Origin: Obrimoposthia wandeli
Lineage: Eukaryota
Direction: 5' to 3'
Assembly: GCA_977020255.1 (NCBI GenBank)
Contig: CDROCS010001491.1
Span: 1,612,001-1,676,000, forward strand
DNA: 64,000 nt
The first letter of the stretch is position 1. Each line of letters opens with the position of its first letter. The translations under genes and the position numbers were made by a program. The notes under the pieces are model-generated. The model worked only from the letters and a program-made list of their open reading frames with translations. It did not search any database and was not told the origin of the DNA. Shown one piece after another: positions 1,638-61,070 of the stretch.

Positions 1638-4600
1638 GTGAGTTGCAATATTTATCATTTATTCAGAGTCAATGTATTAATTGTCAGATGCTTTTAATAA
1701 TTTTGAATTATTAATTATGATATTTATTTTATTTACCCTCAATAAAAATTAAATTTACTCGATAAATAAAATTGTAATTTAAGATATTATTTACTTTGTT
1801 TCCATGCCTCTAAATTCTAAAACTATTTTGTAACATAAACTGCGACACGTTTTAACTATTTACTCCTCAAATGTATTTTGATGGGATTATTTTTAATTGT
1901 ACCGTAATTTTGTCAGAAGTATTTTTGTAGTTCTGTACAAAATATTTACTATGTAAAGATTTGAAACATACTACTTTTAAAAATAATTTTCAGCAATTTG
2001 TACAATTTTTGTTCATCAAACTATTTTATAATAGATTCTTATGGAAATCCTTAAAGCGTAAATCTTTCACTTTTGATTTTGCTCAAAATTAAACTGAAAA
2101 GTATAAAATTAATTATCGAAATTTAAAATGACCTTTTAAAATTGACTAGATATAAAATTATTTTCAATAATATATTTTAGAATGGAATACGCTGCCGTGG
2201 TATTTATAGATCAGGGTTACACAACGAGGCTAATAAAAAAAATGTGAGGGCTGTAGGAATATATATCCAAATGAGAATGTATCATTTTCAAGAAAAAAAA
2301 GTAGTTTAGTAGGTAGAAGGATGGAGTCTAAGCCACTTGACCCCCCCCCTAAAGGGTGTCACACCATAAGGATGTCTTGCCACACCATAAGGGTATATGT
2401 TGCCTCACCTCTGGTGAGGCAACATATACCCTTATGGTGTGACACCCTTTAGGGAGGAGGGGGAGGGGGAGGGGGAGGGGTCAAGTGGCTTAGACTCCAC
2501 CCTTCTTTGATATACCACTATGGTCGTCCATAGGTTAAAGGGTCAAGTGGCTTAGTCTCCACCCTTTTTTTTGGCTAACCACTATGGTCGTCCATAGGTT
2601 AAAGGGTCAAGTGGCTTAGTCTCCACCCTTCTTTTGGCTAACCACTATGGTCGTCCATAGGTTAAAGGGTCAAGTGGCTTAGTCTCCACCCTTCTTTTTG
2701 TGATCTAGTCTCCACCCTTCTTTTTGTGGTCTAGTCTCCACCCTTCTTTTTGGCTAACCACTAATTCAAAGGGTCAAGTGGCTTAGTCTCCACCCTTCTT
2801 TTTGTGGTCTAGTCTCCACCCTTCTTTTTGGCTAACCACTAATTCAAAGGGTCAAGTGGCTTAGTCTCCACCCTTCTCTTGTGGTCTAGTCTCCACCCTT
2901 CTTTTTGGCTAACCACTAATTCAAAGGGTCAAGTGGCTTAGTCTCCACCCTTCTTTTTGTAATCTAGTCTCCACCCTTCTTTTTAAGATCATGTGAAAGT
3001 TCACACTTAAAAGTTAAGGAATGTATGACGTAATCATACACACACTATTCTATGTGAAAATTTAGGTTAAAGTTCACTCTTATCAGTTAAGGAATGTATT
3101 ACGTAATCACACACATACTATTCTAAGTGAAAATTTAGACTAAAGTTTTTCCTAGGCTTACACATCTAAAGAATTATGTTAAAATTTGTATTAAATCAAA
3201 AAAAAAATAAATAAGAAAGAAGTCAGAGAATAATACAAAATTAAACACATTTATTATGTAATTTCATAATGTCCATAAGCGCGGCTTCTATTTTTCTCGA
3301 TCCAATAGCGTTTGTCATCTGATGAGCTGAGAGCAGTCTTTTGTATTATGATCGTGTATAGTTGATGATTTATTGTTCCAAACTTCTTTTGAGGTATAGT
3401 ATATGCAATACCGTTTTCATACACGTCTAAATATGTTTGATGTACAACCGTTGAACCCTTAAGATTTACTCCTTTAGCTTTATTATTTTCAAAGTCATCT
3501 TCAAACTTAAGTGAATAACATTTACAAAGTAAGAAAATCCATTCTTTATACATTCGTCCTTCCGATTCATCTTTAAATAAACCTATTTTACTATTAAATT
3601 TATTAGAATATAATGGATCATTCACATTATAATTTGACGTATCTAATAATCCATCTGCAATCATTTTTGGTAACAACTGTTTTCTTAAATTAACGTTTTT
3701 ACATTCCAAAAAGAATGAGTCGGTATCACCGGCAACTATATTAATTGAACAATTGATTAAATTACGATATATTTGCAAATCATGATACTGAAGAGTATAC
3801 ATTCGTAATTTGCTAAGGTCTAGTACAGCTTGGCCTATATAATTTGGTCGATCGAGACAAATAAAATCTTTTCTTAATAAAACAGCTATTAAATTATCAT
3901 GAATTTCAATTGTTCGTTGAAACATAGGTTTGCTAGTATATGTGATTAATTTTGTAGAACTAGTGCAGATGCGAAGATTCAATCGTTTCTTAACATTTTC
4001 AACGGTCTTTCCATACAAACTAACATTTTTAAGTTTATAAAAATCTTTGTCACATTTATTCGTTGCTTGTGATCTCATTTCTGAATTATATTCTATATAT
4101 TCTGCGAATATCTTAGCCTGAGAGAATTTTACTGCTCGATGAATAATTGTTACCACTGCTCCTAAACTAACATACATCTGCAATAGTCTCCAATGAATAA
4201 CATAATGACTTTTTGGCGAATGCGTCATTATCATTTTTCAACTTTTTTACCAGGTGGACATTTCTTTTCTGGAGCTATAGGAAGATCATCTAAAAAGTCA
4301 TGAAGGTTTTCTGGTATTACCAAGTCTACTTCCATAAAATAACCATATTCAATATGTTCCATGTTCACATTTTTCATTTCATGCAATATTTCGTTTAATT
4401 TTATATCATCAAGAATCCATTAAAAATCTCCTTTTGGTAAAGGTTGATCAAGAGCCCATCCATATAAATTATTAACATCTATATATAAAAGACTTGTTTC
4501 TTCATCAGCGACTACATGATGCTTATTGACAAATGTCATTCCTCCTCGTATACCCGAAGAAATCATGTTGTACATTTCAGGATCCTGCATCAGTTCAACC

Positions 4601-7600
4601 TTATGTTTTAACATTTTTAGAGCACTTGCCCAACTCAACCCAGGAATGCTAAAAAAGTTAAGTGGTTCTAAACCATCTTCACTGAGAGCTTTTCTTCTGA
4701 ATGTTTGAAACACGTCAGCTAATAAATATACGTCAGTCTTTAAGTAAACTAACATATAATCAACATATTTCTACAATTGGTTATTTTCCAAACATCTTGT
4801 GCTTTTTGATATTCAGTGTCTGTGATTTTATCATTCCATTTTATTGGTAAACTTAACTTATTCTGGAGGACTTTTAATGATGTAGCAAAATCATATGGGA
4901 ATATTCCTTTGCCATCAATAAGTTTAGATAGAAAAACTGATCTTGTTAATGGAATAATTGGTAATTTACTGGCTAAATTTTCCAAAGATGATTGTAAAAA
5001 TTGCAAAGAATCTATAAATCTCAGAGTTATTTGACCTAATCTTACAATCATGGCTTGAAACTTTTCCGTTGATTGTGGTATAATATTTATATCCCAGTCA
5101 GTAAATTTATTCAATGCATGTTTTAAAATATGATGTAAATCATAACCTCTGAGATTATGAAACACAATAGGTAAAGTTGGACGAAGTTTTCTTGATAAAT
5201 TACATTCATTGCATGCAGGACCTAAATACTTGCCAGTAAAGTGATCATGATCTTTAACATATTTTTCAGATGATTCGTGACATAAATAACATTCAACGGT
5301 ATTGTTAAATGTATGAATCTCTGCATTTGTTAAGGGAATCATTACGTTTTTAAGAGCATCTAAATACCATGGCAAAACCTTTTCTTTAGCCAAGTTCTCT
5401 ATTGACTGAAGAAATTTAACTATGCAGTCATCACCAACATTATATCAATTTCATCTGTACTCATAAATAACATACCAGATGCGACAGGCATATGCTTTTG
5501 ATGATAACTCTCATCTGGTACTAATACAGATTCAAAATCAGCGTAAACGACATATTTCGGTGATATAGTTTTTGACCAATCATTGAATTTAACGTACTTA
5601 TTCTTAGGCATAGTATACATTGTAGTGCTTTCTTGATTATAGTCACATAAAACTTTATGCTTTTCTAATGACAAATCGGTTTTGAAACCATGTAAACACT
5701 TTTCACACCATTTTCTGCTAATTCTAGTCGTTCCAGTTCGAATATTTAATAGTCGGTTAAGACAACTTATTCCTATATAATGAAACCGTTCCTTGGATTC
5801 TAGTAACAATAAATTAACTATAGTTCCTTCCTTCATTTTTGATTTGTATGCAACATCGATATAAGGATTCTTGATAACATCAGTTTTTGATTCTTTTTCA
5901 CTTACCTCGTTGAATATGAATACATTTATTATTATACCAGGATTTTGCAGTTCAAATTTTGATATATTTGATATTTTCATTGGCATGTCTTCGGAATTAT
6001 ATACAAAATCATTTAAAAATCTTTCATAGTTGCTTGGTCTATTTCTATGTGATTCTATTTCATTATATTTAAGTATTGACAATATTGCATAAATAAAGCA
6101 AAGATTATCAGAGTTTAGAATATTTATGACTACTTTAGATTTTGTAAGAGAATTTGGTGATTTAATATATGAATGACCTGACAATGCACAAATTTGACTA
6201 TATTTAGTAACAATAAATGCATATTCAAGTATATTCATCAATTTCCAACCACTACCTTTTTCTGAATATTCTTCAACTTTATTTTCCATTGTATCTTCCA
6301 TTTCTGAAATTATAGCATGTGAAAAAATCATTGCTCGATGCGAAGCATACCATTCTTTAGTTTCTCCATCATTCTTTTCAAACCTCATTCTAATGATGTA
6401 TTGTATCTTTGCTTTTCCCATTAATTGTACTATTCTTTCTAGTTCGTTTAATAATGAAACTGGAACCTTAAGACTTACAAGATTGAGATGATCTACTTTC
6501 ATGGATATCATTGAATAACTATTTTCTAACGATGTTTTAGTATGTATATTGTCATTTATTTTACGTTTTCGTGACGGAGTAGGAGCTGAAATTACTATGT
6601 TTGATGGTTCATTAATTATATCAGTTCTTTTGCTTAAAGCCGGTACTTTAAATAATTTTTTCTTACTATCATTTTCATATTCTTTTAAATGACTAACATG
6701 TCGACTATAAAATAAGTTGTAATCAACATTTTCAGTGCTTAAACATTGTGGACATATGAAATAATTTATCCTTTTGTATGAATAACCAAAATATTTTTTC
6801 ATTATATCATGACATACTTGAGGATTAAAATGTGTATCCGAATAACAAAAATTTGAATAAGTTTTACATATACTCATCTGATGATATGATTGATTTGATT
6901 GGACTTGAGATATTGATTGATTTGTAGACTGAATAAAAAAAATATATAAATACAATAATTTAATTATTTTACTTACAATGTTAACAAATATTAATTATAA
7001 AGGAATTTGCTTAGATGATGTATCCAAATTAAAATTTCGAACACGACCAGAACAATACGTTTATAAAGCCAAAGATTATACAATACTTATTTTTAGAAAT
7101 AAGAAATGCAGGATTATGGGATGTAAGGTACCTATTAAAAATATTTCTTACCCTTTAAGGATAAATATACTTGGTATTCAATCAATTACGATATGTGAAA
7201 ATTTAGATCAAAGTATCAATCTATTTAAATTATGGAATGTGTTACGTAATACATGTTCATTTGACCCTGAGGTTTTCCCAGGCTTAAGATTAAATATTTT
7301 CAATCCATTATGTGTAAATATTTTCACATCTGGAAAGGTCGTAATTTTAGGTCTTAGAAATTTAGATTTTCAAAATCAAGTTAACGATATCATGACATAC
7401 ATTAAAAAAAATTATATAAATACGAAACAATTTCTAATTAAATCATTCAATTTTAAATGTCTTATAAAGCCGTTCAAAAGTATTACGAGTATGATATGTT
7501 CTTCTTGGCATCTGCATGGATTCATCCAATGACTATGCCAGTGACATTATCGAAAACTTTGTACAATTACCGAGTCTCTGATTTTGACGACAAAGACATT

Positions 7601-10600
7601 CAACAATTCAATGAAGTCGTCAAATATTTGAAAATTGACATTGAACTTGAGAATGAGGGTATATTTATGCGCGGAGATAAGTGTAAATTTTATGATTGTG
7701 GTGGAACAAAGATTTCGGATATTCAAGAAGATGGAAGAAGTTGGATGCTCGAAATAAAAATTCTCGGATATAAAATAAATAAACAGAATGAAACAACTCT
7801 CATCTGGAGGATTCATACAGCGACCGAATATTTTGATGTTTAATAAATATTTAATAAATGTTGTTATTGTTATAAACATGTACTTATTCTGATATATTTA
7901 TTTTATATTAATATTTATATATAATGTTATTAACAAACAATTCGACTTTTCAAGTAGTAGGACCAAGTGGTAGTGGAAAAACTTTATTTGTTTGTAAATT
8001 ATTAAATTCAAAAATGTTTAAAAATAAATTTAATAAAATATATTGGCATCAAGGTGGTGATGGAGAAGCTGGTTTAACAAACCAAGAATTTAATAAAATA
8101 AAAAACATTAAGATTATTAACGGTTTTGATGAAAATTGGACGACAAGACTCGTAAAAGGTGATGTAATTGTTATTGATGACTTATATCAAGAGGCTAACA
8201 AAGAATCTGATTTTAATGATTTATTTACAAAAATTGCAAGACATAGAGAAGTTACTGTAATTTTTATAACCCAAAATTTATTTAATCAAGGAGGAAATCA
8301 TCGTACTCGTAATCTTAATGTACATTATTTGATTTTATTCAAAAATCCTAGAGATCAAACAGTGATAGATTTTATTGCTCGTCAAGCATTTCCTCATAAC
8401 AAGAGTTATTTAATTGATGCGTTTCATGATGCTACATCTTTACCTCATGGTTATTTATTTTTAAATTTTACTCAATCATGTCCTGATGATTTAAGAATTG
8501 TTACTGATATATTTAACCGTAATGGTATTACAGTCTATAAACAAAATAAATAATAATAATGTTTTAAAATAAAATGAATTTAAAAAGAGTATTCTTAAAC
8601 ATAGTAAAAGGACAGATAAAGATGAAGTTAAAAAATTAATAAACACTGTATTATATGATCGTAATAATATTGAATTTTCAAAAAGTTTACCTTATTTTAA
8701 AACCTTAATTGACGTACCTAAAACGAATAAAATGAAAATGTTGAAATCATTTCCAATTTATGTAGTTGATGATTTAATAAAAATTTTAAATAAAATAATT
8801 TATGGTAAAATTAAACCTGATGATAATATTTTAAAATATAAAAATTCATTAATAAATTTAGCAAATTCACGTGGTAAAATTAATAAAAGAAACATTATTT
8901 ATAATCAAAATGGCGGATTCATATTGGTCCTACTGCCCGCTATAGCATCAGTAATAGCTAGTGTTATATCTTCAAGATGGGGATAGTTGTCTTAATAACG
9001 AAAATTATAATAATATTAAATAATTACATTCTTTCGTTTTATACAAACATATAAACAGATTAAAATATATTTAACTTTTATAATAATGGGGATAAACAAT
9101 ACAAAGTTGTCTAACCTATTTATAAATTTTAATTCTTCATGCTCCAATGGAAAAGATTTGGAACAATCCAGAAGATCCAGACGGTTATACAGGGTTAGAA
9201 AAATTGACAAAAAGAGTCAAACAATCAAAAACAAACACACAAAAATGGTTAAGAAATGAATTATCATATAGTCTGAATAAACCTTTAAGACGTAAATTCC
9301 CTACTAGATCATATAAAACTAATGGTATTAATTCGTTATGGCAGATGGATTTAATGGAAATGATTCCTTATTCTTCAGTAAATAACGGATTCAAGTATAT
9401 TTTAACTTGTATTGATGTATTTAGTCGTTTTGCAAGGGCAGTTGGTGTTAAATCAAAATCAGGTATTGATTTATTACATGCAATATAATCTTTAATTGTT
9501 GATGATGTACCAGTAAATATCCAAACCGATGAAGGTAAAGAATTTTTTAATTCACATGTTAAGAAATTATTTAAAACTGAAAATATCAATCATTATTCAG
9601 TATATTCTCAATATAAAGCTGCAGTAGTTGAAAGATTTAATAGAACGTTAAGAGAACGGTTAAAGAAATATTTTACTAAACAAGGTAATAAGAAATGGGT
9701 GAATGTATTACCAAAAATTATTTATGCTTATAATAATTCTAAACATAGAGGTTTAGATGGTTTAAAACCTGTAGATGTAAATAATAAAAATGAATTTGAT
9801 ATTTTGTTGAAACAAAATCTAAAAGAAAAGAAAGTTAAATCTAAATATAAAATTGATGATTATGTTCGAATATCAAAAATAAGTACAAGTCCATTTATTA
9901 AAAATTTTAATCAAAATTGGAGTGATGAGGTTTTTCAAATTCATGATATTAATTATAAACAAAATCCAATAATGTATATTTTAAAAGATATTGATAACGT
10001 CATCATCAAAGGAAAATTTATAAACAAGAGTTACAATTAATTGATAAACCTAAACTATATCGAATACAAGAAATTTTAGAAACTAAAGGTCGTGGTAAGA
10101 ATAAACAATATTACGTAAAGTGGCACGGATACTCTGAACCTTCTTGGATATTTGCTTCTCAAATTGAATAATGTCAAAATATATTATTTTACCTAGTAAT
10201 AGTTGTCCAAGTACTCAACCTAACAATACAGCCAATCAATTTACTGTAGATTGGGAAAACTCTCTAAATTTAGATGGTGAATGGGAGGTTGCCTTGACTG
10301 AATTTGTATTTAATTATACTCCTTTAACAATACAAACTAATTCAAAAATACTTTATAAAACGGAAAAGATAGAAATGAAAACTTTCGATGTATCTTTTGC
10401 AATTTTAAATGGATTAATTTTTAATAATTTAAATACTGTTTTCAATTTCAAAATTACAAAGGATCAAAAATTAGAAATATGTACAATTAACAGTATTCAT
10501 CGAATGTTGTTAAAATTCGAAACTTTAGAAGAATCAAAAATTATAGGTTTTAATGAAATACAAAAAATTTCTAGTCATGTTATAACAAGTGATGAAATTG

Positions 10601-13600
10601 TTGACATAAATAAAAATATTCATGCTAAAATGAGAATTACAATTTATTATTTAGCTGAATATGAATACGAAATAAAATTTAATCAAAATTATTTGATACA
10701 AGATAGTTCTTCATTATGTAATATTATAGCCAGTAAATGTAATGAAATTTTTAAAAGCTGTAATATAGATTCAGACGGATTATTTGATATTTTAATAAAG
10801 AAAAATGTAAAATCAGTTTTATTTGACGAAAAACTTGCATCTTTATTAGGTTTAAATAATGTTTTCTTTGAGAAACGAATTAAAGGTTTTCAAAAACCAA
10901 CACTTTCTAACTCATATAATCAAATGTATATTTATACTAGTTTAACAGATTCTGTCTTAGTAGGATCTGATTATGTTCCACTGTTAAAGTCTATTTGGTT
11001 AAAATCATTAAAATATCGATATGGAGATGTAGTAAATGTTAAAATTGATAATCCAATGTACTTGAAAATGAGAGATTCAAGTATTAATAGAATCGAGGTA
11101 AATATACGTGATGATTCTGGTAATTTAATTCCATTTTCATATGGAGCAAAAAAACTAGTTTAACTCTTCATTTACGTAAAGTATAAACAATATAAATATA
11201 TTTAAAATATAAACATATATAAAATGAATACATCAATTATAAAATTTTATAGCAAAAGTCAACAGGGCGGTGAACTTCCCTATTTCATTGGTAAACAATA
11301 TGGATCTGGTTGGTATCAAACTATTTCTAGATTAGCTATTCCATTTATTAAAAAATTTGGTTTATCAGCAGCTACAAGTGCTGCCAATGTAATTGGTGAA
11401 ACGGTAGGAACTGCGTTAACAAATCCAAAAAACATAATTTCATCTCTCAAAGAAAATACAATCAAAGAAGTCAAAACTTTGATTCCAAAATTAAAAAATA
11501 ATGCTGTTGAGAGTTTAAATAAAGTCGCAAATTGTGTTGAACAAAATGGAAGGGTCTTAAACGTAAAAGAAATAATTTAAATAGTATAAACAAACGTCTT
11601 AAAGGTACTATTTTCCAAAAATGACTAGTATAAAATCTGAATTGTGTATTTTCGATAGATCACTACCTCAAGTAGTGATTGAAAATTCAAGTTTTGAAGA
11701 AATATTTCCAATCAATTCAATTACTGGAAAAAATTTAAATGACATAGAATTTAATATTCATGCATCTGAAGAAGATTATCTGGATTTGAATGATACTTTG
11801 TTAAATATTAAATTAAAAGTTGTAAATGAAGATGGTACTGATTTAATGAAAGATAGCGATGTAACTCCAGAGAATTACATGTTTCAAACTTTGTTTAGAG
11901 ATGTTATTCTAACACTTAATAATGTAAAGGTTGAAGGAGGAAATGGAACGTATACTCATAAGGCTATATTCGATACTCTTTTGAATTTTAGTAGTGATAC
12001 CAAGTATACTAACCTTGAATGTTCCGGGTATGATGATGATGCAGAAAGTCGTAAACAATGGATTAGTGAATCTAAAATATTTTCATTGTGTAATTCAATT
12101 AGATTAGATTTCTTTGATCAACCAAAATATTTGATTCCAGGGATTAATGTTCATTTGAGATTTATGAGAAATCAGCATAATTTTTCGCTCTATTCAGAAA
12201 CTTCAAAACCAATTATTCAAATTCTAGATGCTAGATTGTATGTTAGAAGAGTAAAAGTTGATTCTTCAGTAATGATTGGACATCAGTTAGGTTTGCAAAG
12301 TCAGAATGCAGTTTACCCAATTAGAAAAACTCAGTTAGTAACATATTCAATTCCTCAGGGTTCTTTAGAACTTAATAAAGATCAAATATTCGGAGACTAT
12401 CGTTTACCCAAGTTCATTTTGATTGCTTTCAAAGATACACCTCAGGGTGGTAAGGAATACAAAGTTAAATCTTCTACGTTCAATACATTTAATGTTTCAA
12501 CAATATCATTAGCTAAAAATACAGATTATCGAGAAACTTATAATCTAGATAATAATAATTTTTCATTAGCATATATGCAGTCAATTATTCGAAATATGAA
12601 TATTTTAGATAAAAACGTGAATAATGGTATCAGATTTTCTGATTTTAAATCAGGAAGTTCGATTTTCACTTTTCTATTAGCACCAGATTTTGATATAAAC
12701 ACTACTCAAGTGCCTAAAACTGGTAATTTAAGACTTGAAATTAGATTTAATTCTCCTTTGACCGTTCCAACAAGTGTTTTGATTTACGGAATATTTGATT
12801 CCGAAATTCAGATTACGAAAAATAAAACTGTGATTGTATGAAGTAAGCTTATTGTATATTATATTCTTTATTTAAATTAGTACTTTAGAAATTTATAAAT
12901 CCGGAAAAATATTATTGAATAACAAATTTAATGGAGTATATTCATTGGATAAAATTCCATCATTAAAACCCGGAGGCTACATTATCAATACTCATACTTC
13001 AAATCTACCAGGCGAACATTGGATAGCAATATTCGTTGACAGATTCGAGTGTTTGACCCTTTTGGATTCTATTATCCTTCAAAGTTGGTGTCTACACTTG
13101 AAAAAGAAAACATTCCAGTCTACTATAATCGAGTTAAATGTCAGAATCCATTAACTAAAAACTGCGGACCTCTGAGTCTTTTATGGTTGAAACTTCAACA
13201 CAAATAATTTGAAGTATAAACAAATATATCATTATAGTATTTCATTTTATTTTTTCAAATGGCTTTTATTGATTTAGAATGTTTTATTGATAATAATGGA
13301 GAATATATTCCAAAGGAATTATGTATAATGTATGTGAATGATATGACTTGTCCATTTCATTACGTGTTTAAAAATCAAATACCATGGAGTAGTTTATCAT
13401 TTACAGTTAAAAGAAAAAATCTATATTTGATAAATCATCATCATCAGTTATCCTGGTTTGAAGGTGAAAGCTCTGATATTCATATTGATGATGTTGAAAC
13501 AATATTCTATGTTATGGATTCTATTGATGGAAAGAAAATTAATTTAGTGAAACGAATGTTTCCAAATTTAAGAATTGTGAATTATAATAAAAGTTTCAAA

Positions 13601-16600
13601 AATTTAAAGAAAATGCCAAAAAATATTCGATGTCCGTTTAGAAAACACGGAAAACATTGTGCTTATTTGAAATGTTTTTCTCTATGTATTGATTATGTAA
13701 ATTGTATATAAATATATTTATTAAGGATATTTATTTTAATATATAATTTATGTTATTTAAATAAATTTTATCATATTTCTTTAGATGTGTAAGCCTAGGA
13801 AAAAACTTTGATCTAAATTTTCACATAGAATAGTGTATGTATGATTACGTAATACATTCCTTAACTGATAAGAGTGAACTTTAGTCTAAATTTTCACATA
13901 GAATAGTGTGTGTGTGTTAAAAACCACATTCCTTAACTGATAAGAGTGAACTTTATCCTAAATTTTCATTATGGACGATCATAGTGGTATACCAAAGAAG
14001 GGTGAAGACTAGACCACTTGACCCTTTGAATTATGGACGATCATAGTGGTTAGCCAAAAGAAGGGTGGATACTAGACCACAAGAGAAGGGTGGAGACTAA
14101 GCCACTTGACCCTTTGAATTAGTGTTAGCCAAAAAGAAGGGTGGAGACTAGATCACAAAAAGAAGGGTGGAGACTAAGCCACTTGACCCTTTGAATTAGT
14201 GGTTAGCCAAAAAGAAGGGTGGAGACTAGACCACAAAAAGAAGGGTGGAGACTAAGCCACTTGACCCTTTGAATTAGTGGTTAGCCAAAAAGAAAGGTGG
14301 AGACTAGACCACAAAAAGAAGGGTGGAGACTAAGCCACTTGACCCTTTGAATTAGTGGTTAGCCAAAAAGAAGGGTGGAGACTAGACCACAAAAAGAAGG
14401 GTGGAGACTAGATCACAAAAAGAAGGGTGGAGACTAAGCCACTTGACCCTTTAACCTATGGACGACCATAGTGGTTAGCCAAAAAAAAGGGTGGAGACTA
14501 AGCCACTTGACCCTTTAACCTATGGACGACCATAGTGGTATATCAAAGAAGGGTGGAGTCTAAGCCACTTGACCCCTCCCCTCCCCCTCCCCCTCCTCCC
14601 TAAAGGGTGTCACACCATAAGGGTGTCTTGCCACACCATAAGGGTATATGTTGCCTCACCAGAGGTGAGGCAACATATACCCTTATGGTGTGGCAAGACA
14701 TCCTTATGGTGTGACACCCTTTAGGGGGGGGTCAAGTGGCTTAGACTCCATCCTTCTACCTACTTAGTTTAAATTGGTTTTTTAATGAGATTTAATGAGA
14801 AACACGCTTTTCCTATTCGAGTGTCATATTTTACGTTGAGGTTTCAAAATGTATTTTAAATGGTCGTTAGTCAAACAAGAACGTACTTTTTTATTGAAGT
14901 TCATGATGGAGAATGTCTGCTAACATTTGTAGGTGCTGCCAAAAAGACAGAACAGTTTCATTGCGGGATCTATAAAAAAAATGTACTTTTTACCATCCAA
15001 ATTTTTGTAGAAATCCTTTAAATCCTTCTCTGTGTTTATTTCGTTACATTACCGAACATTGCTGTTCAATAACTTCCCACTGTCTCTCTGGATCAACAGA
15101 AAAAGTATCTTCAATTAGTTTTAATTGAATGTCTTCCATAGTAGATAAAGTAAATCCTTTTCCAAATTATTCAATCAATAAGTCAATTTGCTTTACAAAA
15201 TTTTCACCCAAGTCGATGGGTTTTTCTGAGGAGTATGCAGAGCACACGTGAGAAATTTTGCCTTTCATCAACTGAGTCCTGAAAAGATTCAATTGCATTT
15301 GAAAACTATTTACTATTGCAAACATTTCAAATACAAATCGATACTTCCCCTCAAACTGTTTATTCACATTATTCAGATGTTTTGTAATATCTCAAAAGAA
15401 AAAATATCCTAATTCCAAGCTTCTACTTTGAGCTCAAGGAATTTTTGTGGTTCTTTTTCAAGGACATTAGTTATTTCTTCTTTCAATGTGACAAAACGCT
15501 GAAGTACTCGTCCACAACCCAACCATCTCGTATGCCAGTGTATGGTAAAGTAAGTTGATGCACTCTAAAAGTTATATGTTTGAGTCCATCTAGATCGGAT
15601 GTAATTTCTCGAAAATAGGCGGAATTCTCGAGTTTTTTACATTAATTGATTACTGAGATTTGAGGAAATGTCAGTTATTCTTCTCTGTATAGTCATTCTT
15701 GATAGACTGACATTCTCTAATAATCTTTTTTTCTGAGCATAATCACGTAACAGCTATTAGCATACACTTCTTTGCAAACTCACCTTTTGTAAAATATTTC
15801 CCAGCAGCAGCAATTTCCCTTGAAATTTGTAAGGTTATGTTGGTACCTGTCTTATTTTGTGTAAATGTTCTTGAACATTTGTGGTATTTAAGATAGATGC
15901 TTTGATTTTTTTTTACCTTTTGATTCAAATTGGAGGGAATGTGATGTTTGGTTTTAAAGTGGAATTGAAGATCGTATTCCTTCGCAATTACTGTCGTTTC
16001 ACGACATACGAGACAAGTTATTTTGTCTTTGAACATAGAAACATATATTTGTTCGTCCATTCTGTTTCTATTTTTCTTTTTTTGTCATGCTCATGGTTAA
16101 AAATAACTGTAGAAATAAACATACACATAAACAAATATTTCGTTTTGTAATTTATTTCCATTAAAATTAATAATCATATAAATATTATATTTTAAAGTCA
16201 AATTATTGAAGTTTTGAAATAAATCATTTGTTATAACAAAATAATATACAAAAATCATATTCAATTTAAAAAAAAAAATTTTAGAAGATTTTTTCCATTC
16301 CTCATATTCGTAATGTTATAATAATATAACTACTGCGGTCCGTTTGTTGTGCAGGTCTGGGTTAACCCAATAAAATTATAAAAATATTAACAATTAATTC
16401 AAAACGATAACTGTAAATTTCAGCAGGATTTAGGCTTTACATTTTCATAGGGTAATTATATATTTTAACTAATTATTATTAAATCTATGTAATTAAATGT
16501 ATTAATAAAGTATTTTGTTTTTGTTTACTTTCAATATTAATGTATTTTGTATATAAATTAATATAATTATTAAATTTTTAAATTAATTAGTTATTAACAT

Positions 16601-46870: not shown

Positions 46871-48529
46871 GCGCATGTTTCAAAAGTCAACTTAACATTG
46901 TAAAGCCGAATTAAAACCAATAACCCATCCTACATCACCGATGAAAATAACCGCGGTGGATATATTAGGACCATTTCCAGAAACTATTAAAGGATATAAA
47001 TATATACTTGTCTTTTCAAACTATCTAACTAAATGGACTGAGGCATTTGCTTTACCAAATCAAAAAGCAGAAACAATAACCAAAATATTTACTGAAGAAA
47101 TACTATTGAGATTTGGACCACCAGTGAAGATAATTACTAATCGTGGAACAAATTTTATGAGTGACGTAATCGCAGAAGTAATGAAATTCTTTCGAATAAA
47201 AAAACTAAATACTTCTCCTTACCATCCACAAACGAACGGGCAGGTAGAAAGATTTAACCATACTTTAGAAAATATGCTATTCGCATATGTTAATAATAAA
47301 CATGGCAACTGGGTTGAATATATCGCAACATGTCCATTCGTCTATAGAAACACTAATCATTCAACTACCAAATAAACACCTTTCTTTTTAATGTTTTACG
47401 CGAATTTCGAATGCATACAGGCCTGAATTTTCTACTACCTTTGGATCAATACATGGCAACACCAACCTAAGTAGTTACTATGAAAGAGCGTTTGAAAGAA
47501 GCTAGGGAGAAAGCAAATTTAAATATTAAAGTTTCCCAAGAATATAAGAAGGAAAATTATTATAAAATTGGTAAACAACATAAATTTCAGACAGGCGACA
47601 AAATATTAATTTGCGTACCGTTACATCAGATAGGTTTAACAAAAGAAGTTCCATAAACCATACGAAGGGCCATATGAAATTATCGAAGTAATTGAACCAA
47701 ATTTAACAGTAAAATCATTAGTTAAAAAAGAAATACAAACAGTTCATGTAAATAAATGTAAACCTTATTACCAGACTCAAGACAACCAAAGATATAATTT
47801 GAGAAGCAATATACTTCCACAGGTCAATATTACAAATACATTTTTCGCAATTATTACTCTAGCAGTAATTGCTTCATGCTGCGGTGTCTAAACAAAAATA
47901 AAATTATGGACATATGCTATGCACCTATATTTATGGCAAAACAGAAGTACTTATAATTTTGAAATTTACACATTACCAAGAATATTTGATATAATCATAA
48001 AGGTATAACCAAATGTTGGTACATGTTGTGAACTTATAACATGTGGAAACTCAAAAAATTCTTATACAATAGTGAATAAATCATCAATAAATGCATTTGT
48101 ATGCAAACATATGTTACCATACAAAATGTTTCAAATAAAAATTCGGGAAAAGACAACATATTTCAATTCTTTGTCAGAACATTACAATTTTTACATCAAC
48201 CAAAGAACTTACATATAAGATCAGTACAAGAAAAATATATATTTGAGTGGAAAAGCTTACTTAGCGTGAACAAATTTAACCCAACAGGCTCCAAAAACCA
48301 AAACATTAATACTGATATATACCACGAAGTGAATATTTATAATCTACAAAAAAACACACTCCCCTACAAATAAGTAAATGAAATAATAAATACAAAACAC
48401 TCTACAAAATAACAATAACATGTTCTATACAAGAGTGCGACATGCTCTAAAAGTATTTACTTTAACATCGCAATACACAAGAATAAAGAAAAGATCTGCG
48501 GTGGCCCGACAAGCAATATATATATACAG

Positions 48530-50041
48530 GGTCGCGAATGGGATGGTCTCACTCCCTATGCTACTCCAACTTCGATAGCAGACAATACAGTGCCTGGACC
48601 ATTCAGAAGGCCACAATCTTCGATACGTGATTTTAGGAGAATAAAGGCGACGAATGAGGTTAGACTTAATTTATTTCAAATGTTTTTAAATTTCATTTTC
48701 AGAATCTTCAACTAGCTATAACACCGTCAGTGACCACGGCGGAGAGACTGATTGAACCTCAATACATGGTGAGTCAATCCAGCCAGGAAGAGCCGAGGAG
48801 TGAATACCAATACCTACCGACTCCGAATAATATTGAGGTAAATTATTTTAAATTAGATAATAATTTTAATTATTCACATAGGAAGCAGACTTGGTAGAGG
48901 AAGTTCTGGAGGAGGCAACCCTCAAACTATCCCTGGATAGGAGGCAGGAGGTGGTGAGGAAACCGCGACGACATCAGGTGAAAACATCAACAGTCCACAG
49001 GAAGAAGGCAAAGTTGGTGAAACAGGCAAACCTGCCTGTTATTGAGGTAAATTACTAATATACTTAAATTTTATTAATGCTTTTTTTGCAGGAACCTGCA
49101 ACACTTATTGAAGATGGTTTAGAGAGGCCACAACAATTCCAGGGATGTGGAAGCAGAAGGCAGTGGTACAAAAAACCAAACGCATTAGAAAGGCGAAAAA
49201 CAATATTCTCCAGTCTACCGAGACATCAATGGAGCATCAGGATAAACTTCCTTATACTATTATTGAGGTAAATTTTAAAATTTTAAAATATTTTATTAAT
49301 TATAATTTTTTATAATATTTTACTAATATTTTTTTAATGCAGGGTCCTTTAAAGGTAATTGAGGATACTTGGGGAGAAATTTCTCCTTTCCCGCAGAAAC
49401 GGACGAAGCGAACAGAGGTGCGGAAGACGAAACGCTCGAGAAAATGTCGCACCACAATGCTCATTTTTCTGAGGTGGGGATTGGCCAGCAGGAGATTCTC
49501 CCATCTCCAGTAGACGACGGACCAATTATGTACGAGATGATACCAGTCAACGACCCCTGCAGGAGACGGCACCAGCTCCATTAAACATCAGCCAAAATTT
49601 GGCCAGGGCTTGGGAGACTGCTTCTCCTCGTCCAACAACCAGCCAGAACTTGAAGAGGGTCTGGGATGAAGCTGGATTGGACGAATTCCTGGCGGAATTG
49701 GATACTCCGCAACCGGCAATGCTTCCAGATTCGCGAGGGCAGCAGGATGCCGTCTCATCCCAGCTTCAGCGCGAGGAGAAATTGAAGAAAGCTCCGCAGT
49801 AAAGGAAGGCTACAACTTCTTCATCGTTGCTATCAACATTGGCTGCACCTCCTCCCAAAACGTTGCGGCAACTACTGCCAAAACCTCAGGAAAGGTCAAT
49901 TAATGCACAGCAACCGGTGCAGCCGAAAAAGAAGCCAGTGTCGCTTACTCCTATAACACTCAGTCGGAGGGATATCGATGAGGTTGATCCCAACAAAGAC
50001 TTTGTGAAGTGTTTTGGAAAGAATATACCTTGTAAAAAATA
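48530..50041 (+). pseudogene. Multi-exon gene for a disordered protein (SQNLxRxW / LDEFLAEL family), block A copy
   Basis: Exons 48530-48658, 48703-48837, 48882-49046, 49092-49267, 49343-50041. Four phase-0 introns of 44, 44, 45 and 75 nt. Frameshifts and a TAA in the later exons. Confidence 0.7.
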
Positions 50042-50416
50042 ATTTTATGTGTTTTGTTTTATTTTTAAATTTTTATATTTTTTTTTTACAAATTTAGAAA
50101 TATTAAAATACAATCATAAATTTACTAAAATATAAAGTTGAAAAATAAAAAAAATAGGTAACTTATTCGAATGTGATAGGATTAATTAATAATAAAATTC
50201 TACATGTCTTCAAACTTCTTTAATTTCAAAAAGATAAGTATTAAATTTATATAGAAATGCAATGATTAGTTATTGATTTATTAAATTATAAACTCTCATT
50301 TGATAAATAAAAGTATATCATTTAATTGAATGTGATAAGATCAAAAATATTTTAAATTTATATATATAGGCTCAAATTTATTAACCTCTTCATAAATAAA
50401 ATTGAAATTTACTTAA

Positions 50417-50700
50417 ATGCAAAGTTTCGTGACGAAAATAGAAGAAATTATCAGAAGAAATGATAAGAAAGGAGATTTAAGAAAAAGGATCCTCAATCAG
50501 AATCTTTACGTTGTTGTCGCGACTGAGTAGAATCGTCGGGTGGTGATTCTAGACAGACGTCCAGCAGAACGACAACGGATCCTGGATTTTAATAGGAAGA
50601 AAGAATTGGAGTAAAGGAAACTGGATGAAAAAATAATAGTGTAGATGGCGGACAATCGCCGAGCAGCAAGAAAGAGAATCCTCCAGATTAAACCTGAATT
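50417..50700 (+). pseudogene. Degenerate paralog of the 55621-55941 coiled-coil (SERTA-like?) gene
   Basis: MQSFVTKIEEIIRRNDKKGDLRKRILNQNLYVVVATE*NRR. Confidence 0.75.
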
Positions 50701-51138
50701 TTTGAAAATTATTTTTTCTTTTTATCTTATTGATTATTTTTGTGTTACATAATTGTATAAATATTTTACATAACTTTACTAAATATAAACAATTTTATAT
50801 ATAATGTTTTTTTATAATATAGATCATAAAATAAATTGGAATAAATTATTCATTAAATTATCTCCAGATGTAATGGAAGATTATGAAAAAAAATTATATC
50901 TCAAAAAATTATACTCCTGAAATTGTTGCAAATAAAATATGTAATTTACTTTCCAAATATTTAGGTAGGTTTACATTTAATATAATTTATTTTAATATTC
51001 ATAGGAGAATTGAAAATATGTACCAATCTAAGGAGAAAAATGAATCCTGAGTATTTTGATATTTTAAAACATTTTGATAATTGGTTTTTTATTTTTATTC
51101 GTTATAAACAAAGGGATTTGTTACTTATATGTGTAATT

Positions 51139-51432
51139 ATGCAAGAATATATCATAGACTTTGAAGCTTTCATTAACAAAAATGGAGAATATATTATAAA
51201 AGAATTATGTATTATGGATATATGCGACGTTTTCCATCCTTTGCATTTCATATTTCATATAGATATCCCGTTTAGGAGTTTAGATTATAAGAAAAAGTTT
51301 ACTAATTTATATCTAACTAATTATTTTCATTTATTAAAATGCAAAGGAAAACATAAGGCTTTTTGTAAATATGTATTTTCGATACAATTAAATCTAATTT
51401 TGATATTAAAAATAGATTATTTTATGTTTTAG
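51139..51432 (+). pseudogene. Truncated DEDD exonuclease-like gene, block A copy
   Basis: MQEYIIDFEAFINKNGEYIIKELCI, near-identical to 56076; internally deleted. TATAAACA 36 nt upstream. Confidence 0.75.
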
Positions 51433-51717
51433 ATGAAATGTATGGTTAAAGTGAAAGAAAAAACACCAACACTCTTTCAAAATTTTCCAACAAAATTCCA
51501 CCTGTACATCAACATCCTCTTGGTTGGGTTCTATTATGATGAACTTTGTGAATTGTCTTCTGTATACAGGCCAACGAGGGTATGTTGGATGAGGAAACTC
51601 TCCATAAGTTCTGATCCATTTTGATAAACACTCCTCGTGGTATAGGTGGTTGCAGGCATTGGGTCTTGTTCTTCGTTCTGGTATATTTTCTAAACATATT
51701 GGACATTCCTCAGACAT
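51406..51717 (-). CDS. RING-H2 E3 ligase-like protein (C-terminal ligand pair decayed)
   Basis: CPICLE..ACNHLYHEECLSKW..RWPVYRRQF (C3H2C3 pattern with the last CxxC mutated). Confidence 0.7.
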   Translation of the reverse strand: MSEECPICLENIPERRTRPNACNHLYHEECLSKWIRTYGEFPHPTYPRWPVYRRQFTKFIIIEPNQEDVDVQVEFCWKILKECWCFFFHFNHTFHLKHKIIYF

Positions 51718-52958
51718 TCTAAATATATGATAACGATTAATTTCTGCATGGTTTCTACATAATTCTACACTTGTTTTTTACAATTACTTCTACAACATTT
51801 CTACATATTTTTATACACTAATTTATCTACAACCTACTCTGACTTGTCATGTCTTGATGGGAGGCAGAGGCAAGGGTTGCAATTCCACTTCCTCCATCAT
51901 GGGTGTGTTACAGAATCGCAGCTCTTTGCATCTCTAGAGATTACGGCCATTACGATAAAAGCATTGACTGGTGTCATTCAGCTGTCTGAGGATTGATAAT
52001 CGTACTTACTTTTGATGTTTGTCGGGTTGAATGGCGTTTCGAGTGGTGCTGTTTGGTTTCCGTGTATTATTTTCGATCTTTTGATAATTCACGGTTTCAG
52101 ACTTATTGTTTATTGTCTAAGTGATATTATTATTCGATATTTGAAATCCAGTGGAATCGTTCCCTTTACTCTTCTCCTCTAGATGATTGTGCTTTGGTTT
52201 CTGGAATTGGGCTATCTTCCTTTCACCTTTGCCTTTTTTATGATTGTGTTTGGTTTCCCGGGATGGAATTTCCTGGGTCTGATTCTCGTACCTATTCGAT
52301 TAAATTGACTTGTCTGGTACTTTAGAGTTACATAGTATATTTGATTTGTTATTACAATGATTACAGTAGAGGTTTCTTAGCATCACTGGGAATTCGGTTA
52401 CATGTACACTCGGCATCATAATGTGGTATCAAAATTTGGGGTTGTATTGCGAATTTGATTCTGTCATCTGGATTGGGACACGCCACTGTTACCTTGTCAG
52501 TTTCCAGCAGTCTGAAAAACAGGTTAATGGAATTCCATACGGTTTTACGTCGTTTACCTATGACCATAATCCTGTCAAAAACTTTCCAGGTACGCTCGTC
52601 AGTAGACAATATTACTGATTTTGTTCGGATAACTTGGATAATCCGTTTTCTTTTAGATATAGTTATTTGTAGATATAACATATTTTCATAATAGAATAGG
52701 ATCAGTCGGTAGTAAAGTGTATGATTGTCAATCTATATTTTAATATCGCAGATAACGTATAATTTTTTGATCAACATTTTCAGTTGCGGATGTTTGTAGT
52801 TGAATGTCTAATATGTGATTTCTTTTTAGTAAAAGTATTTCTATGTATAGCGCTCGTATCGTATCTTGTATCCATTAACTGACAATGATCTCGTAACCAG
52901 CTTCGGTCGTGGTGACTTGTATGACCAAAATGATTCCTATTATTGTCCGGTTCCGAAT

Positions 52959-53465
52959 CTAAGGGATTTCTCTGGGATAACCCAAAGTACTAATGAAGTA
53001 TGGCCTTTCCTCGATACGTTCATATATCGTTGGCTGATACTCCGGTGCTGGTTCATTTATGAATGCTGGTCTTGGTAGTGTTGTGTCGAATTTTTGTAAA
53101 TTCATTTGACCTGCTCGTCTTGAGAAATCATGACGTTTCTTTAATTTCAGCTCGATCTTTGTACAGCACACCAATATGAGTAATATTAATATTATGATTC
53201 CGATAATCAATGACATAATTGGATTGACCAATTCTAGAATGCCATAATGTATTATTTTCATTCTTTTACTCTTGATGGTTAAAATTTTAAATTTATGTGT
53301 GTTTTTGTTGGATATATCACTCAGAAGTACGATTTTAGTTTGTCCAAATGTGTATCCTTCACATGTGACAATACTAACGCCATAATATCCAGGTAGTGTT
53401 TTCATTTCTGTCGCTGGTATTATACACACTCGCTCTTGACAGCCTTTCACACACATGATCATCAC
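52959..53465 (-). CDS. Type I membrane protein-like ORF (Cys-containing ectodomain, TM helix, cytoplasmic tail)
   Basis: Hydrophobic IMSLIIGIIILILLILVCC followed by a basic stop-transfer segment. No recognised family. Confidence 0.45.
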   Translation of the reverse strand: MMIMCVKGCQERVCIIPATEMKTLPGYYGVSIVTCEGYTFGQTKIVLLSDISNKNTHKFKILTIKSKRMKIIHYGILELVNPIMSLIIGIIILILLILVCCTKIELKLKKRHDFSRRAGQMNLQKFDTTLPRPAFINEPAPEYQPTIYERIEERPYFISTLGYPREIP

Positions 53466-53509
53466 GGCTTTACTGTGAGACGTTTTGATTATTTCTAAGG
53501 TGTTGTTTC

Positions 53510-56904: not shown

Positions 56905-59900
56905 ATGCCTATGGTAAGAATTTATTTTTATTATTTCCTTATTAATATTTATTATTTCAGATTACGTGTAACCTATTCCCTGCGTATTGCTTTGCTTCGG
57001 CTCCGCATGGAGGAGAGTCCTGCATGGAGACAATGTCTGCATACTATCGGACAAAGTCTCAAGGTGTTCTGTTCTTCGTCTGCCCCTTCTGCAGAACAAT
57101 GGAGGAGAAGGAATTTCGAGAATTCTTCTGTGAACATCGAGCTCACCTATCGTGTTTCACGGCCAACAACAAGAAGAGGGATATCGTCCAATTGGTGCGC
57201 GATTCGCAGGCCGCTCCAGCTCCACCTCCAATTACAGTGGCAGTCAGTCTACCAGTTTATGGTCCTGCCATTGGTCCTTCTCTCCCGGCTCCTGATTCTG
57301 CTGCTTCCCCATCCACTCAAATGTCTAACAATGAGTGGATGAACGACATCTCCGAGGAAGATTTTGAGGAGTTGGCACCAGCAACCCAATTCTCAAACAA
57401 TGACTGGATGCGAAATATCACCCAGTCAGATTTCGAGATGGAGCAGCCTCAGTGGAGCGATAACTCATGGTTGGAGACCATCGAGGAATCCGACTTCGTC
57501 GAGTCAACGGACGACAGCTGGATGGATTCCATCAATGAAGAGGACTTCATTCCAGCTCAAAACTTGGATTGTCATCATTAGGTTTTTTTTTTTTTTTTTT
57601 TGTAAATTGTAATTATATATTTTATTTTTAATATATATATTTTATTTATATTATTTATTCAGGAAATACCGTTCTACAATCGTCATCTGCTACAACAGAT
57701 ATGCCTCCACCATCGCGAGTGCCTACATCGATGTTAGCACGCCTTAGAGGTAATAATTTTTAAAAATATATTTATTTTTTAATATATTTATTTCAGCAGC
57801 ACTAACTTCTACAACAGCCGCTTCTTCATCGGAAAGGTCAGCGGTCCCTTCAACATCATCTACAGTTGCCTCAACATCGGCAGCATCAACAATAGCAGCT
57901 GCTTCCACATCAGCTGCAATTGTCTCAACATCGGCAGTATCACCAATAGCAGCATCTTCAACCTCAGCTGCGATTGTCTCAACTATTAATATAAATAGTT
58001 GTCTTCCCGTTCAATTAGGGGGAGGTTTGTCAGCGACAAACGGAAGAAAGAGGCGAGGCCAATTTCTTAATAAGGTCCCACCCAAAAAACGTAGAGAAAA
58101 CGGTGCTACTATAGAGTATCACCTAAATAATAAATATGTTATAGTTAAGGTGCCATTAGGAAATGAAATTTTATTAAACGTAGTTGTAGATTCAAATATT
58201 GAAAATCTTTTAAAATCAGAAGTGACTAAATTAGGACAGGCTAAGGTTCAATTTTGCGCAACAGTGCAGTTTAAAAATGTCAATGAGGAAACTAAAACTT
58301 GGGTAATTTCACATAAAGCAACTGTTTTTTATGATAATTTTGTAACTGAAATTGGAAGAAATTGCTTTCTGTATAGCGTGTTGGCCATCCTCAAAAGGGA
58401 TGTAATTACTGAGCATAGAGAGCGTGTCAGTAAATATACCTCTTTTTTAAATGAATTGCAGTATCATGGAATAGATTTTCCTGTTAAATTAACTGCGATA
58501 TCAAGATTTGAACATCTTAATAACTTGAGTATTAATGTATTCAAATATAATACTGATATCCCAGTTAATGTAACAGATGAAGAAATTTTTAAAAATCCTT
58601 TTGTAGATGTAATTTATAGGAGCAAAAATGATCAGGTCAACTTAATTTTGCTCGAACATAATAATAAATTCCATTATGCTGCAATTCCCAGTTTAGATCG
58701 TCTTCTAAATTTAGATAATGGAGCCTTACCGGTTAGGATAAGGTGTAAGTGGTGTCATAGATGTTTGCATGGATTCCGATCCGAGCTCTCTTACAGCAAA
58801 CATCTGACATTATGTTCACTGAATCCTGATGACAATACGCTATATAGCATGCCTAAGGATAAGGATTTAAAATTCAGGGATTGGGCAAAATGCATACCCG
58901 TGGAATTCAGGGTGTATGCAGATTTTGAGTCAATTTTAGCATTGCACGACCAGTATGAGAGTATTCACCTACCGGCTTCGGCAGGACTACTATTCTTAGG
59001 CCCCAATATTACCCAGTATCATAAATTTTCCGGTCCAAATTGTATTTTAGATTTTATGTTAAAATTAGAGGAATTAGGAACAACAATTGTCAAACCGTGG
59101 TATGATCTCAATGCTCATCAAACAATGATCATGACAGGCATAGACTGGGTTAATTTTAATTCTTGTAGATTATGTTATTTGTGTGGAACCCAGTCTAAGT
59201 TAGTCAGAGATCACGATCATGTTACAGGGCGATACTTGGGAGCGGCGTGCAACCTTTGTAACCTTGGCCGTCGACTCCCTAAAAAACCACGCATTCCCAT
59301 CGTGTTTCATAACCTCAAAGGATATGATTTGCATCATATACTTAAATACGCGTTGGGTACATTAAGCTCTTGGGAAATTTCATGTATACCTCAAACTTGA
59401 GAGAAATATTTATCTTTAACTGCATATACTGAATTCTGCAGTTTAAGATTCATATATTCTCTGCAGTTTTTGAGCGGGTCTTTAAAAAATTTAACGGCAT
59501 CTTTAAATGCATGGCCAATTACACAGTCAGTGTTCCCAGCTTCGGTTAACGATAAGTGGATTTTTCCGTATAAATTTGCGAAAACTTTCGCAGATTTAGA
59601 AAATACAACTGAAATCCCACCCATAACTGAATTTGAGGTTGTAAGTCTTCAAGACTATAATGAGGCCCGTACATTTTGGGTGAATAATTGTCAAAATCTT
59701 CTCGAATATATGCTTTATTATATGAAGTTAGACATTTATCTTTTAGCTGATGTTTTTGAGTCCTTTCGTGTAAAGTCTTTAGCAGAAGATGGGCTAGATC
59801 CCATGCATTTCTTTAGTTTACCTGGTCTTTCATAGGCAACAGCAATAAAAACTCTTAAAATTAATATCGAGTTACTGCAAGATCCCGCGATGTATCAAAT

Positions 59901-61070
59901 GTATGATTATGGTATACGCGGTGGAATGACTTTTGTCAACAAACATCATGTTGTCAAAAATCAATCCACGGAGATTCTGTACATCGATATTAATAATTTG
60001 TATGGGTGGGCGCTTACTCAACCTACCGCATGCCAACTTTAAGTGGGTTTATGATGAGGAAGAGTTGAATAAGTTGATGACAGATTTGGCTACTGTTGAT
60101 ACAGTTTAATCCGACGTCGGCTATTTGGTTGAGGTGGACATAAATATCCTTCCCAATGTGCATGATAAATTAGATGATCTTCCAGTAGCGCCTGTTCATC
60201 AATGCCCACCTAATTCAAAGGTTAATAAATTATTGTTAACCCATGAAGACAAGTTGAATTATGTTGTGCATTGGCGGCTTCTTCAATTCTACTTAAAGTT
60301 GGGAACGAAAGTTACTCGAATTCATCGTGCTATAAGCTTCAGTCAAAACTTTGTGTTTAAAGACTATATTGAGAAGAATTCAAGAAAACGTAATTTGGCC
60401 ACTAGCAAATTCGATCGAGATTTTTACAAGTTAAAAAGTAATAGTCTCTTTGGAAAAACTGTAGAGGACTTGCGGAAACGTATTTGTCTACGGTTTTGCA
60501 ATGATGAGCGTAAACTAATAACATATACTAGCAAGTACAACTTCAAGCGTAGTTTTACAATTGCAGATGACTTGGTAGCAGTGTTATTAGGAAAACAGAG
60601 TATTTGTCTCGATCGACCGAGTTATATAGGTCAAACGGTTTTAGACATTTCTAAACTCAGAATGTATGAGCTTCAATACATAGAATTGGAGAAATATCGA
60701 CAAGAATTTGATTGTGAGATTAAAATCGCAGCTGGGGACACTGACTCTTTCTTTTTAGAATGTAGGAATGTTAGTTTAAATAATCAATTATTACCAGCAA
60801 TGTTTAGGGACAACTTACTAGATACCCATAAATATCCCGCTAACCATCCTCTACACTCTATGAGTTTAAAGGACATTATCGGGAAATTTAAGGATGAAAG
60901 CGAGGGACAGGTATCGTATGATGATTGTATTTTCCTACGCCCTAAATGATACAGTTTACATGCATCTAATAATACATGTTCAATGAGAGCAAAGGGTGTC
61001 GGAAGAAACAATCTTACACATGAGGCCTACCGGAAAGTTTATGATACTGGGTGTGTTGGGGTTTCTATAT
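56905..61070 (+). pseudogene. polB: Spliced Zn-finger / acidic-repeat / Ser-Ala-Thr linker / pPolB gene (exons 56905-56913, 56961-57581, 57663-57749, 57797-~61070)
   Basis: Introns of 47, 81 and 47 nt with GT-AG ends; exon 4 is in frame with ORF 58027. Pol motifs YADFES, VFHNLKGYD, YIDINNLYG, KLKSNSLFGK, AGDTDS. Nonsense codons at 59398, 59833 and 60947, frameshifts, an internal deletion and C-terminal truncation. Confidence 0.85.

Follow-up and report, generated by a model that had tools for sequence, protein, structure and literature searches.

An undescribed, conserved Cys/His finger family that opens the terminal-protein/PolB polyprotein in a clade of Polintons

The closest described system is the protein-primed polymerase (pPolB) of Polinton/Maverick elements, the Alpha class of adintoviruses. 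As far as the available portions of the literature go, to which all our statements on published work are limited, this polyprotein has a terminal protein (TP) fold with a priming Ser in a Gly loop, a vOTU protease with its catalytic dyad and a PF03175 polymerase (10.1101/2024.03.18.585575, referred to below as Krupovic et al.; PMC8502044). Krupovic et al. infer that TP and vOTU are separated by cleavage, the TP being left on the 5' end. This TP-vOTU model explains how replication is primed and is silent on the region ahead of the TP. Here we report on that region in two Polinton elements of a 64,000-nucleotide stretch from the AT-rich, 1.35-Gb genome of Obrimoposthia wandeli (assembly GCA_977020255.1, contig CDROCS010001491.1, positions 1,612,001 to 1,676,000, forward strand), called the window throughout, with position 1 as its first letter. 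The elements here share with the described system all of the pPolB features above, as well as an endonuclease VII insert, integrase, ATPase and putative capsid genes, terminal repeats and a 6-bp target duplication. They differ from it by an extra Cys/His module ahead of the TP, by putative introns in the leader and by a TBP-like gene; intact vertebrate Mavericks are described as intronless (PMC8097293).

The module represents a real, conserved and hitherto undescribed family of Cys/His fingers at the start of the TP/PolB polyprotein. It lies in the window as follows.

6689..6877, minus strand: predicted zinc module of element 1, Met1 to His63, with a C-C-H-C add-on, a helix, a three-stranded sheet with CxxC and a helix with HxxH; ATG at 6877
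6812..6868, minus strand: add-on site of element 1, C4-x6-C11-x4-H16-x5-C22, a predicted metal site
6689..6754, minus strand: core finger of element 1, C42, C45, H60 and H63 (CxxC-x14-HxxH)
6650..6688, minus strand: short C-terminal helix with Phe/Tyr and a small lysine patch, within the conserved unit
56961..57146, plus strand: predicted zinc module of element 2, C3, C10, H16, C21, C41, C44, H59 and H62

The initial annotation had reported a pair of related Cys/His peptides, and both are indeed present, one from the ATG at 6877 (minus strand) and the other at 56961-57155 (plus strand). The range it gave for the first, 6790-6877, takes in only the first 29 codons; the final His is reached at 6689, and a short conserved helix extends to about 6650. 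Its consensus pattern needs one amendment, in the His-Cys spacing of the knuckle, which is 5 in element 1 and 4 in element 2. The modules align without a gap over 69-70 residues at about 22% identity, with a score of 100. None of 20,000 full shuffles reached this score (maximum 66) and neither did any of 20,000 shuffles with every Cys and His held fixed (maximum 93), so the shuffled controls named in the annotation as a possible refutation leave the alignment significant in both schemes. In a six-frame tblastn search of the window the module pair was the sole non-self match below E 0.1 (7.6e-10).

The two elements belong to separate families, each with at least 150 near-identical copies in the genome, and their polymerases are 44-56% identical. 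Among 30 copies of the family 1 module, 5 variants are synonymous and 2 non-synonymous; among 30 copies of the family 2 module the numbers are 20 and 4. The ligands are unchanged in both families. The module is under purifying selection.

A search with the module alone returned no matches. With the TP-vOTU region 882 proteins were retrieved, and the relatives discussed below are the best 120 of these. A profile hidden Markov model of the two window sequences alone, as the annotation had proposed, finds the N-termini of 18 of these 120 relatives at E < 0.02. A profile of 21 sequences, 19 of whose rows were drawn from those relatives, marks 20 of the same 120, at the protein start; C42, C45, F56 and H60 (element 1 numbering) are invariant among the 21. 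As a test outside this set, 80 metagenome loci were translated in six frames and searched with the profile; there were six matches (E 1e-19 to 3e-11), all of them at the start of a polymerase, four of them from outside the profile and five from one assembly; the next match has E 0.98. In a FastTree phylogeny of 117 rows all carriers fall within one clade of 58 rows (support 96), which holds both elements and 56 proteins, 20 of these with the module. All carriers among the relatives are metagenome proteins. A profile search of longer proteins returned ten matches, all of them these polymerases or their N-terminal fragments, in a word-seeded search that tests absence elsewhere weakly. To date the module is known from a single clade of Polinton polymerases, with every match at a polymerase N-terminus.

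The 38 clade proteins without a unit comprise 28 that are cut short before or inside the TP and 10 with a long N-terminal extension. For one of the latter, P0013, the module is found just upstream on its contig. P0133 shows the add-on site that is missing from its cluster-mate P0011, where the start was called late. Gene callers miss the module through small introns and wrong starts, and the polymerases of the clade are consequently annotated short.

The counts on the anatomy of the unit come from 30 sequences, which together hold 41 units. Its core consists of two aromatics at the end of a helix, a hairpin closing in aromatic-x-CPxC, an aromatic-x2-Phe motif and HxxH, followed by a Phe and a lysine patch. 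The spacing between the second Cys and the first His is 13 in 25 units, 14 in 11 and 15-19 in 5; HxxH is present in 37 of 41 and the Pro of CPxC in 34 of 41. The add-on, C-x4/7-C-x3/4-H-x2/5-C, is seen in 13 units (one of them lacking the His), an aromatic/Trp motif takes the place of the first four ligands in 18, and 10 have nothing there or a cut start. Given the numbers for the last two groups, the conserved unit is a single CCHH finger; the 'two-metal module' of the annotation describes the version in these two elements, and not most units. Units occur singly or in tandem, in up to three copies.

Ligand conservation leads us to infer that the module is a zinc-binding domain. AlphaFold2 predicts for element 1 a helix at residues 19-30, strands at 31-34, 37-42 and 47-49 and a helix at 53-60. 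The predicted local distance difference test score (pLDDT) averages 77 for the module alone and is 84-96 over residues 11-70 in a 485-residue model; hairpin and helix are both present in the core, and the model places no metal. The predicted fold is alpha-beta-beta-beta-alpha, in which one zinc is expected in the core and another in the add-on. Because the core persists without the add-on, the two zincs are predicted to be sequential rather than cross-braced.

No Pfam, NCBIfam, PDB-sequence or fold match assigns the module. The best Foldseek rows, the DNA-binding fingers of Kaiso and Tramtrack, are non-significant (E 5-8.5, probability at most 0.12). The annotation could not recognise the module as RING, PHD or classical C2H2, and library, profile and fold searches agree, giving no assignment. 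With classical C2H2 fingers (PF00096) it shares an aromatic-x-CxxC hairpin, a helix with two His, tandem arrays and the position in the polyprotein. Unlike them, it has 13-14 residues rather than 12 between the second Cys and the first His, HxxH where they have HxxxH, one more helix and strand ahead of the hairpin, an optional second site and an acidic helix. The classical spacing, C-x2-4-C-x12-H-x3-5-H, is not that of the module, and 0 of 21 members match PF00096. In an hhalign comparison with the relatives' own C2H2 fingers, the profiles align over 8 columns with a probability of 12%, within the range of shuffled columns, and descent from C2H2 is for that reason neither shown nor excluded. 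As for RING and PHD, these have eight cross-braced ligands, while here the first four are gone in most units and the last four persist; the best RING rows have E 0.16-0.38, in 1 of 21 members, and the Atlas PHD rows score 0.75-0.77, below lead level.

Retroviral CCHC knuckles have the spacing C-x2-C-x4-H-x4-C. The add-on shares with them the ligand order C-C-H-C and the x4 before the His; in contrast, its first loop has 4-7 residues, its last Cys begins a long helix packed on the core, and there is no zf-CCHC match.

That the module forms the N-terminus of both PolB proteins, as the annotation put it, holds for family 1, where it is part of a single open reading frame (ORF). In family 2 it lies outside the polymerase ORF and would be joined to it through introns. 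The family 1 frame is open for at least 1200 codons in 14 of the best 150 genome copies (counted by eye), and two copies carry Met, module, TP, vOTU and PolB in a single ORF of 1212 amino acids; in the window's copy the PolB frame is broken downstream of the module. In family 2 the open frame around the module spans 81-286 codons in all 150 best copies, and because it never exceeds 286 codons, the link to PolB needs splicing. In each family the TP is found downstream of the module in 29 of 30 loci. The putative leader of element 2 is as follows.

56905..56913, plus strand: inferred first coding exon (Met-Pro-Met)
56914..56960, plus strand: inferred intron 1, 47 nucleotides, GT..AG, 13% GC, directly 5' of the module
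57582..57662, plus strand: inferred intron 2, GT..AG, 6% GC
57750..57796, plus strand: inferred intron 3, GT..AG, 6% GC, with the TP exon next
57797..61058, plus strand: TP-vOTU-PolB coding region, broken in the window's copy

Intron 1 is 47 nucleotides long with a GTAAGA donor in 26 of 30 family 2 copies. Of the same 30, 24 could be parsed for the other introns, and here the exon lengths are constant (619 nucleotides in 19 and 87 nucleotides in 22 of the 24) while the introns vary (48-83 and 31-63 nucleotides). Counted across the introns, the frame reaches that of the TP in 14 of the 24 copies, 9 of them free of stops; the remaining 10, the window's copy included, are broken. Two metagenome loci (L074:481-828, with boundaries placed by eye, and L085:685-979) have three such introns each; none of their exons is interrupted by a stop, and the final one shares its frame with TP-vOTU. 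The conserved phase strongly implies that the family 2 module is spliced to the TP through small, AT-rich introns.

It may be added that three unrelated elements (element 2 and those of L074 and L085) each have at least three short, AT-rich putative leader introns between start and TP; the family 1 coding region has none, and introns seem to be confined to the leader. The linker of family 2 (57335-57560, plus strand) also contains about four acidic Trp repeats of the type W-M/L-x-x-I-x-E-x-D-F, which resemble activation-domain or short docking motifs.

In the polyprotein the module is followed by a disordered basic linker, the TP, the vOTU and the polymerase. In element 1 these parts are placed as below.

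6560..6571, minus strand: RKRK, a basic cluster that resembles a nuclear localisation signal, within the disordered linker (residues 80-106)
6185..6547, minus strand: TP (D1) domain spanning residues 111-231; Ser209, encoded at 6253, is the predicted priming residue
5747..6160, minus strand: putative vOTU-like protease with catalytic Cys260 and His366, assigned by position and motif in comparison with Krupovic et al.
5645..5707, minus strand: internal CxxC-x12-HxxxC finger between vOTU and exonuclease, present in 98 of 120 relatives

Residues 111-231 find Y-family polymerases in Foldseek with a probability of up to 1.00 (E 0.003) over about 120 columns, and the same similarity has been published for the Polinton TP (Krupovic et al.). 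Across 39 sequences there is no variation at Ser209, which lies in the predicted linking loop, or at Cys260 and His366, as expected of the priming residue of a TP and the catalytic pair of a vOTU; a vOTU fold is absent among the Foldseek rows displayed. Zinc fingers are unmentioned in the available portions of the published accounts of pPolB architecture. An RKRK-type cluster is present in most carriers.

Given this arrangement, we consider that the module may be an adaptor by which the 5' ends of the genome are docked on chromatin or on a protein partner. It is the reading we favour, tentatively, since we would give it somewhat less than an even chance. Because the module lies upstream of both the TP and an intact vOTU, cleavage between these two, as proposed in the literature, would leave it, together with the RKRK-type cluster, on the TP; with the TP covalently attached to 5' ends, it would ride on both ends of the linear genome. 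Its partner would presumably be a surface on a protein, be it in host chromatin, a nuclear factor or the integrase of the element itself, rather than a defined sequence of bases, and the job of the module would be to hold the TP-capped genome at the site of copying or integration in the nucleus. Metal binding is a prediction from sequence, and TP/vOTU cleavage and TP attachment are proposals taken from the literature. A precedent for a tether on a TP is the phi29 TP's N-terminal domain, which is needed for nucleoid localisation (PMC4357725). Further, a 2026 preprint suggests that, of TP/pPolB and integrase, one may be the adaptor that serves its counterpart at the ends of the genome (10.64898/2026.10.13.758929).

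The sister clade is informative here. In the slot ahead of the TP, 11 of its proteins have two to five classical C2H2 fingers and one has Rho_N, and it is this shared slot that makes the position look like that of a targeting module. In two carriers, P0136 and P0137, the new units follow upon classical C2H2 fingers, as expected if targeting modules are interchangeable. We rank a protein or chromatin partner first on account of the finger helix, whose charge is neutral or acidic here and basic in classical fingers: in a comparison that is crude, the mean charge is -0.6 for the new units (21 of 41 negative, 6 positive) and +2.3 for the sister fingers (32 of 35 positive). The confidently folded module and the linker with pLDDT below 50 support, as far as models go, independent folding.

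Much of this could also be explained by binding to DNA without sequence specificity, by which the module would clamp TP and polymerase to the end of the genome or to DNA of the host, in the manner of the phi29 domain. The slot is shared with C2H2 arrays and Rho_N, tandem copies occur, the net charge of the whole unit averages +1.7 with lysines after the second His, and the non-significant Kaiso and Tramtrack rows are DNA-binding fingers. The phi29 domain, too, is an accessory domain placed before the one for priming, and it is carried along on the ends of the genome (PMC4357725). The analogy is functional only: the fold of the phi29 TP is helical, unrelated and without zinc (Krupovic et al.), and its N-terminal domain binds DNA directly. 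We rank this explanation second and regard it as somewhat unlikely.

Several observations do weigh against a protein-docking adaptor. No partner emerges from the fold matches. Both the replacements in the sister proteins, which are nucleic-acid binders, and the phi29 precedent, which binds DNA, point to non-specific DNA binding. In the patch after the second His, two positions are Lys in 22 and 20 of the 41 units. Finally, of the 56 clade proteins on the tree 36 are without a unit, mostly through a truncated N-terminus; nine, however, have a long N-terminal extension and yet no unit, so that the module may be dispensable.

The initial annotation had considered origin DNA as the target, and in that case the module would read the sequence of the element's terminal repeats and so mark the origin or repress promoters. 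The inverted repeats of element 1 do contain tandem repeats, and the sister polymerases carry classical DNA-reading fingers. We found no direct support for origin binding; the neutral or acidic helix argues against base reading of the classical kind, the spacing of 13-14 with HxxH is also unlike that of DNA-reading C2H2 fingers, and the profile comparison with the relatives' C2H2 fingers stays within its shuffled range. In our opinion this is very unlikely.

The module may also resemble UBZ fingers, in which a conserved Asp of the helix stands beside the His. The finger could then bind ubiquitin or a ubiquitin-like protein, serving the vOTU or bringing the polymerase to ubiquitinated chromatin, an idea that fits the CPxC start with its frequent Pro, the acidic helix and the deubiquitinase-fold domain in the same polyprotein. 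On the contrary, no UBZ family is among the Pfam matches of the 21 members, Asp stands beside the first His in only 4 of 41 units, and the module would be parted from the vOTU after cleavage. We attach little likelihood to it.

It is also conceivable that the module has no outside partner and acts on the polyprotein itself, in folding, stability, self-association or blocking of the TP until cleavage. Most of the conserved non-ligand residues are indeed aromatic or hydrophobic, and the module is missing from some clade members. But a disordered linker of very variable length separates it from the TP (the N-terminal extension of carriers has 124-233 residues), and up to three repeats suit a binding module better. 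We therefore hold such a structural or regulatory role to be most doubtful.

Irrespective of which explanation is correct, the region ahead of the TP appears as a modular slot that one clade has filled with an unnamed finger family. The finding bears on how Polintons are retained in the nucleus and on how integrase gains access to ends blocked by a covalently attached protein. One may go further and speculate that a large Polinton clade targets its genome ends by means of a finger family with an architecture of its own, that this family, borne covalently on both DNA ends by way of the TP, hands the genome to integrase or to a host chromatin mark, and that swaps with C2H2 or Rho_N change the sites of replication and insertion. 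This is quite unlikely; if true, it would give the first testable handle on the coupling of protein-primed replication to integration in Polintons. For the present it is one more small predicted metal-binding domain in a known element. With about 70 residues and a fold confidently predicted by modelling, the module would be suited to expression and assay on its own.

Concerning novelty, a module ahead of the TP is unmentioned in the available portions of Krupovic et al. ('zinc' has 0 occurrences), PMC8502044 and PMC10748475. No published description was found within that scope, which also includes PMC11957031 and lies outside Repbase and the supplements, where an unnamed annotation is possible. 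Other zinc fingers have been reported, such as the stand-alone 'Ziftr' genes of some adintoviruses (10.1101/2024.03.25.586562) and a zinc ribbon of virophages that occurs by itself or on GIY-YIG (PMC3671162).

The remaining features of element 1 are given below.

2308..14764, no strand assigned: Polinton element 1, complete, with terminal inverted repeats, TAGTTT duplication, ATPase, integrase, capsid-type and protease ORFs
3254..6877, minus strand: PolB gene of element 1, in four frames in the window's copy (broken), with an endonuclease VII (HNH) insert
6933..7532, plus strand: TBP-like ORF, PF00352 E 5.6e-12, head to head with PolB

The 6-bp target duplication TAGTTT flanks element 1 at both ends, as is typical of Polinton/Maverick insertions, and matches to PF03175 and PF00665 identify the protein-primed PolB and the rve integrase. 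The ATPase is Pfam Pox_A32. The putative capsid and protease ORFs have no Pfam match and are named from size, order and motifs. Element 2 is a truncated copy; three other family 2 copies carry the set of genes described for element 1, and PF03175 and PF00665 are both carried by family 2 copies elsewhere in the genome. The TBP-like ORF, in which a single Pfam TBP repeat is detected, is present in both families (L149, L152, L157), and all 30 family 1 loci show it in a head-to-head arrangement with PolB. In the available portion of Starrett et al. (PMC8502044), TBP appears only as a label in a figure legend.

A small ORF after TBP in family 1 (7457-7843, plus strand) has a distant homologue in family 2 (L152:2881-3243, minus strand), on the opposite side and strand of TBP. 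The terminal inverted repeats of element 1 (2460-2990 and 13990-14600) hold arrays of 26-, 52- and 78-bp units, and termini related to them recur at 19601 and 28144, probably as non-autonomous derivatives. The window's element 2 (48500-61100) is without the integrase/capsid half of other family 2 copies, and its left part is partly duplicated at a spacing of about 5 kb. Two small RING-finger ORFs lie near it (51406-51777 and 63335-63790, both minus strand; PF13639, E 3e-9 and 7e-8). Two ORFs without a Pfam match at 52959-54292 (minus strand), one with a transmembrane-like end, perhaps represent an envelope-like gene of an inserted element. Lastly, ubiquitin-like matches number at least 150 in the genome. 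Many of them form tandem arrays, the period being 267-270 bp, and score well below true ubiquitin.
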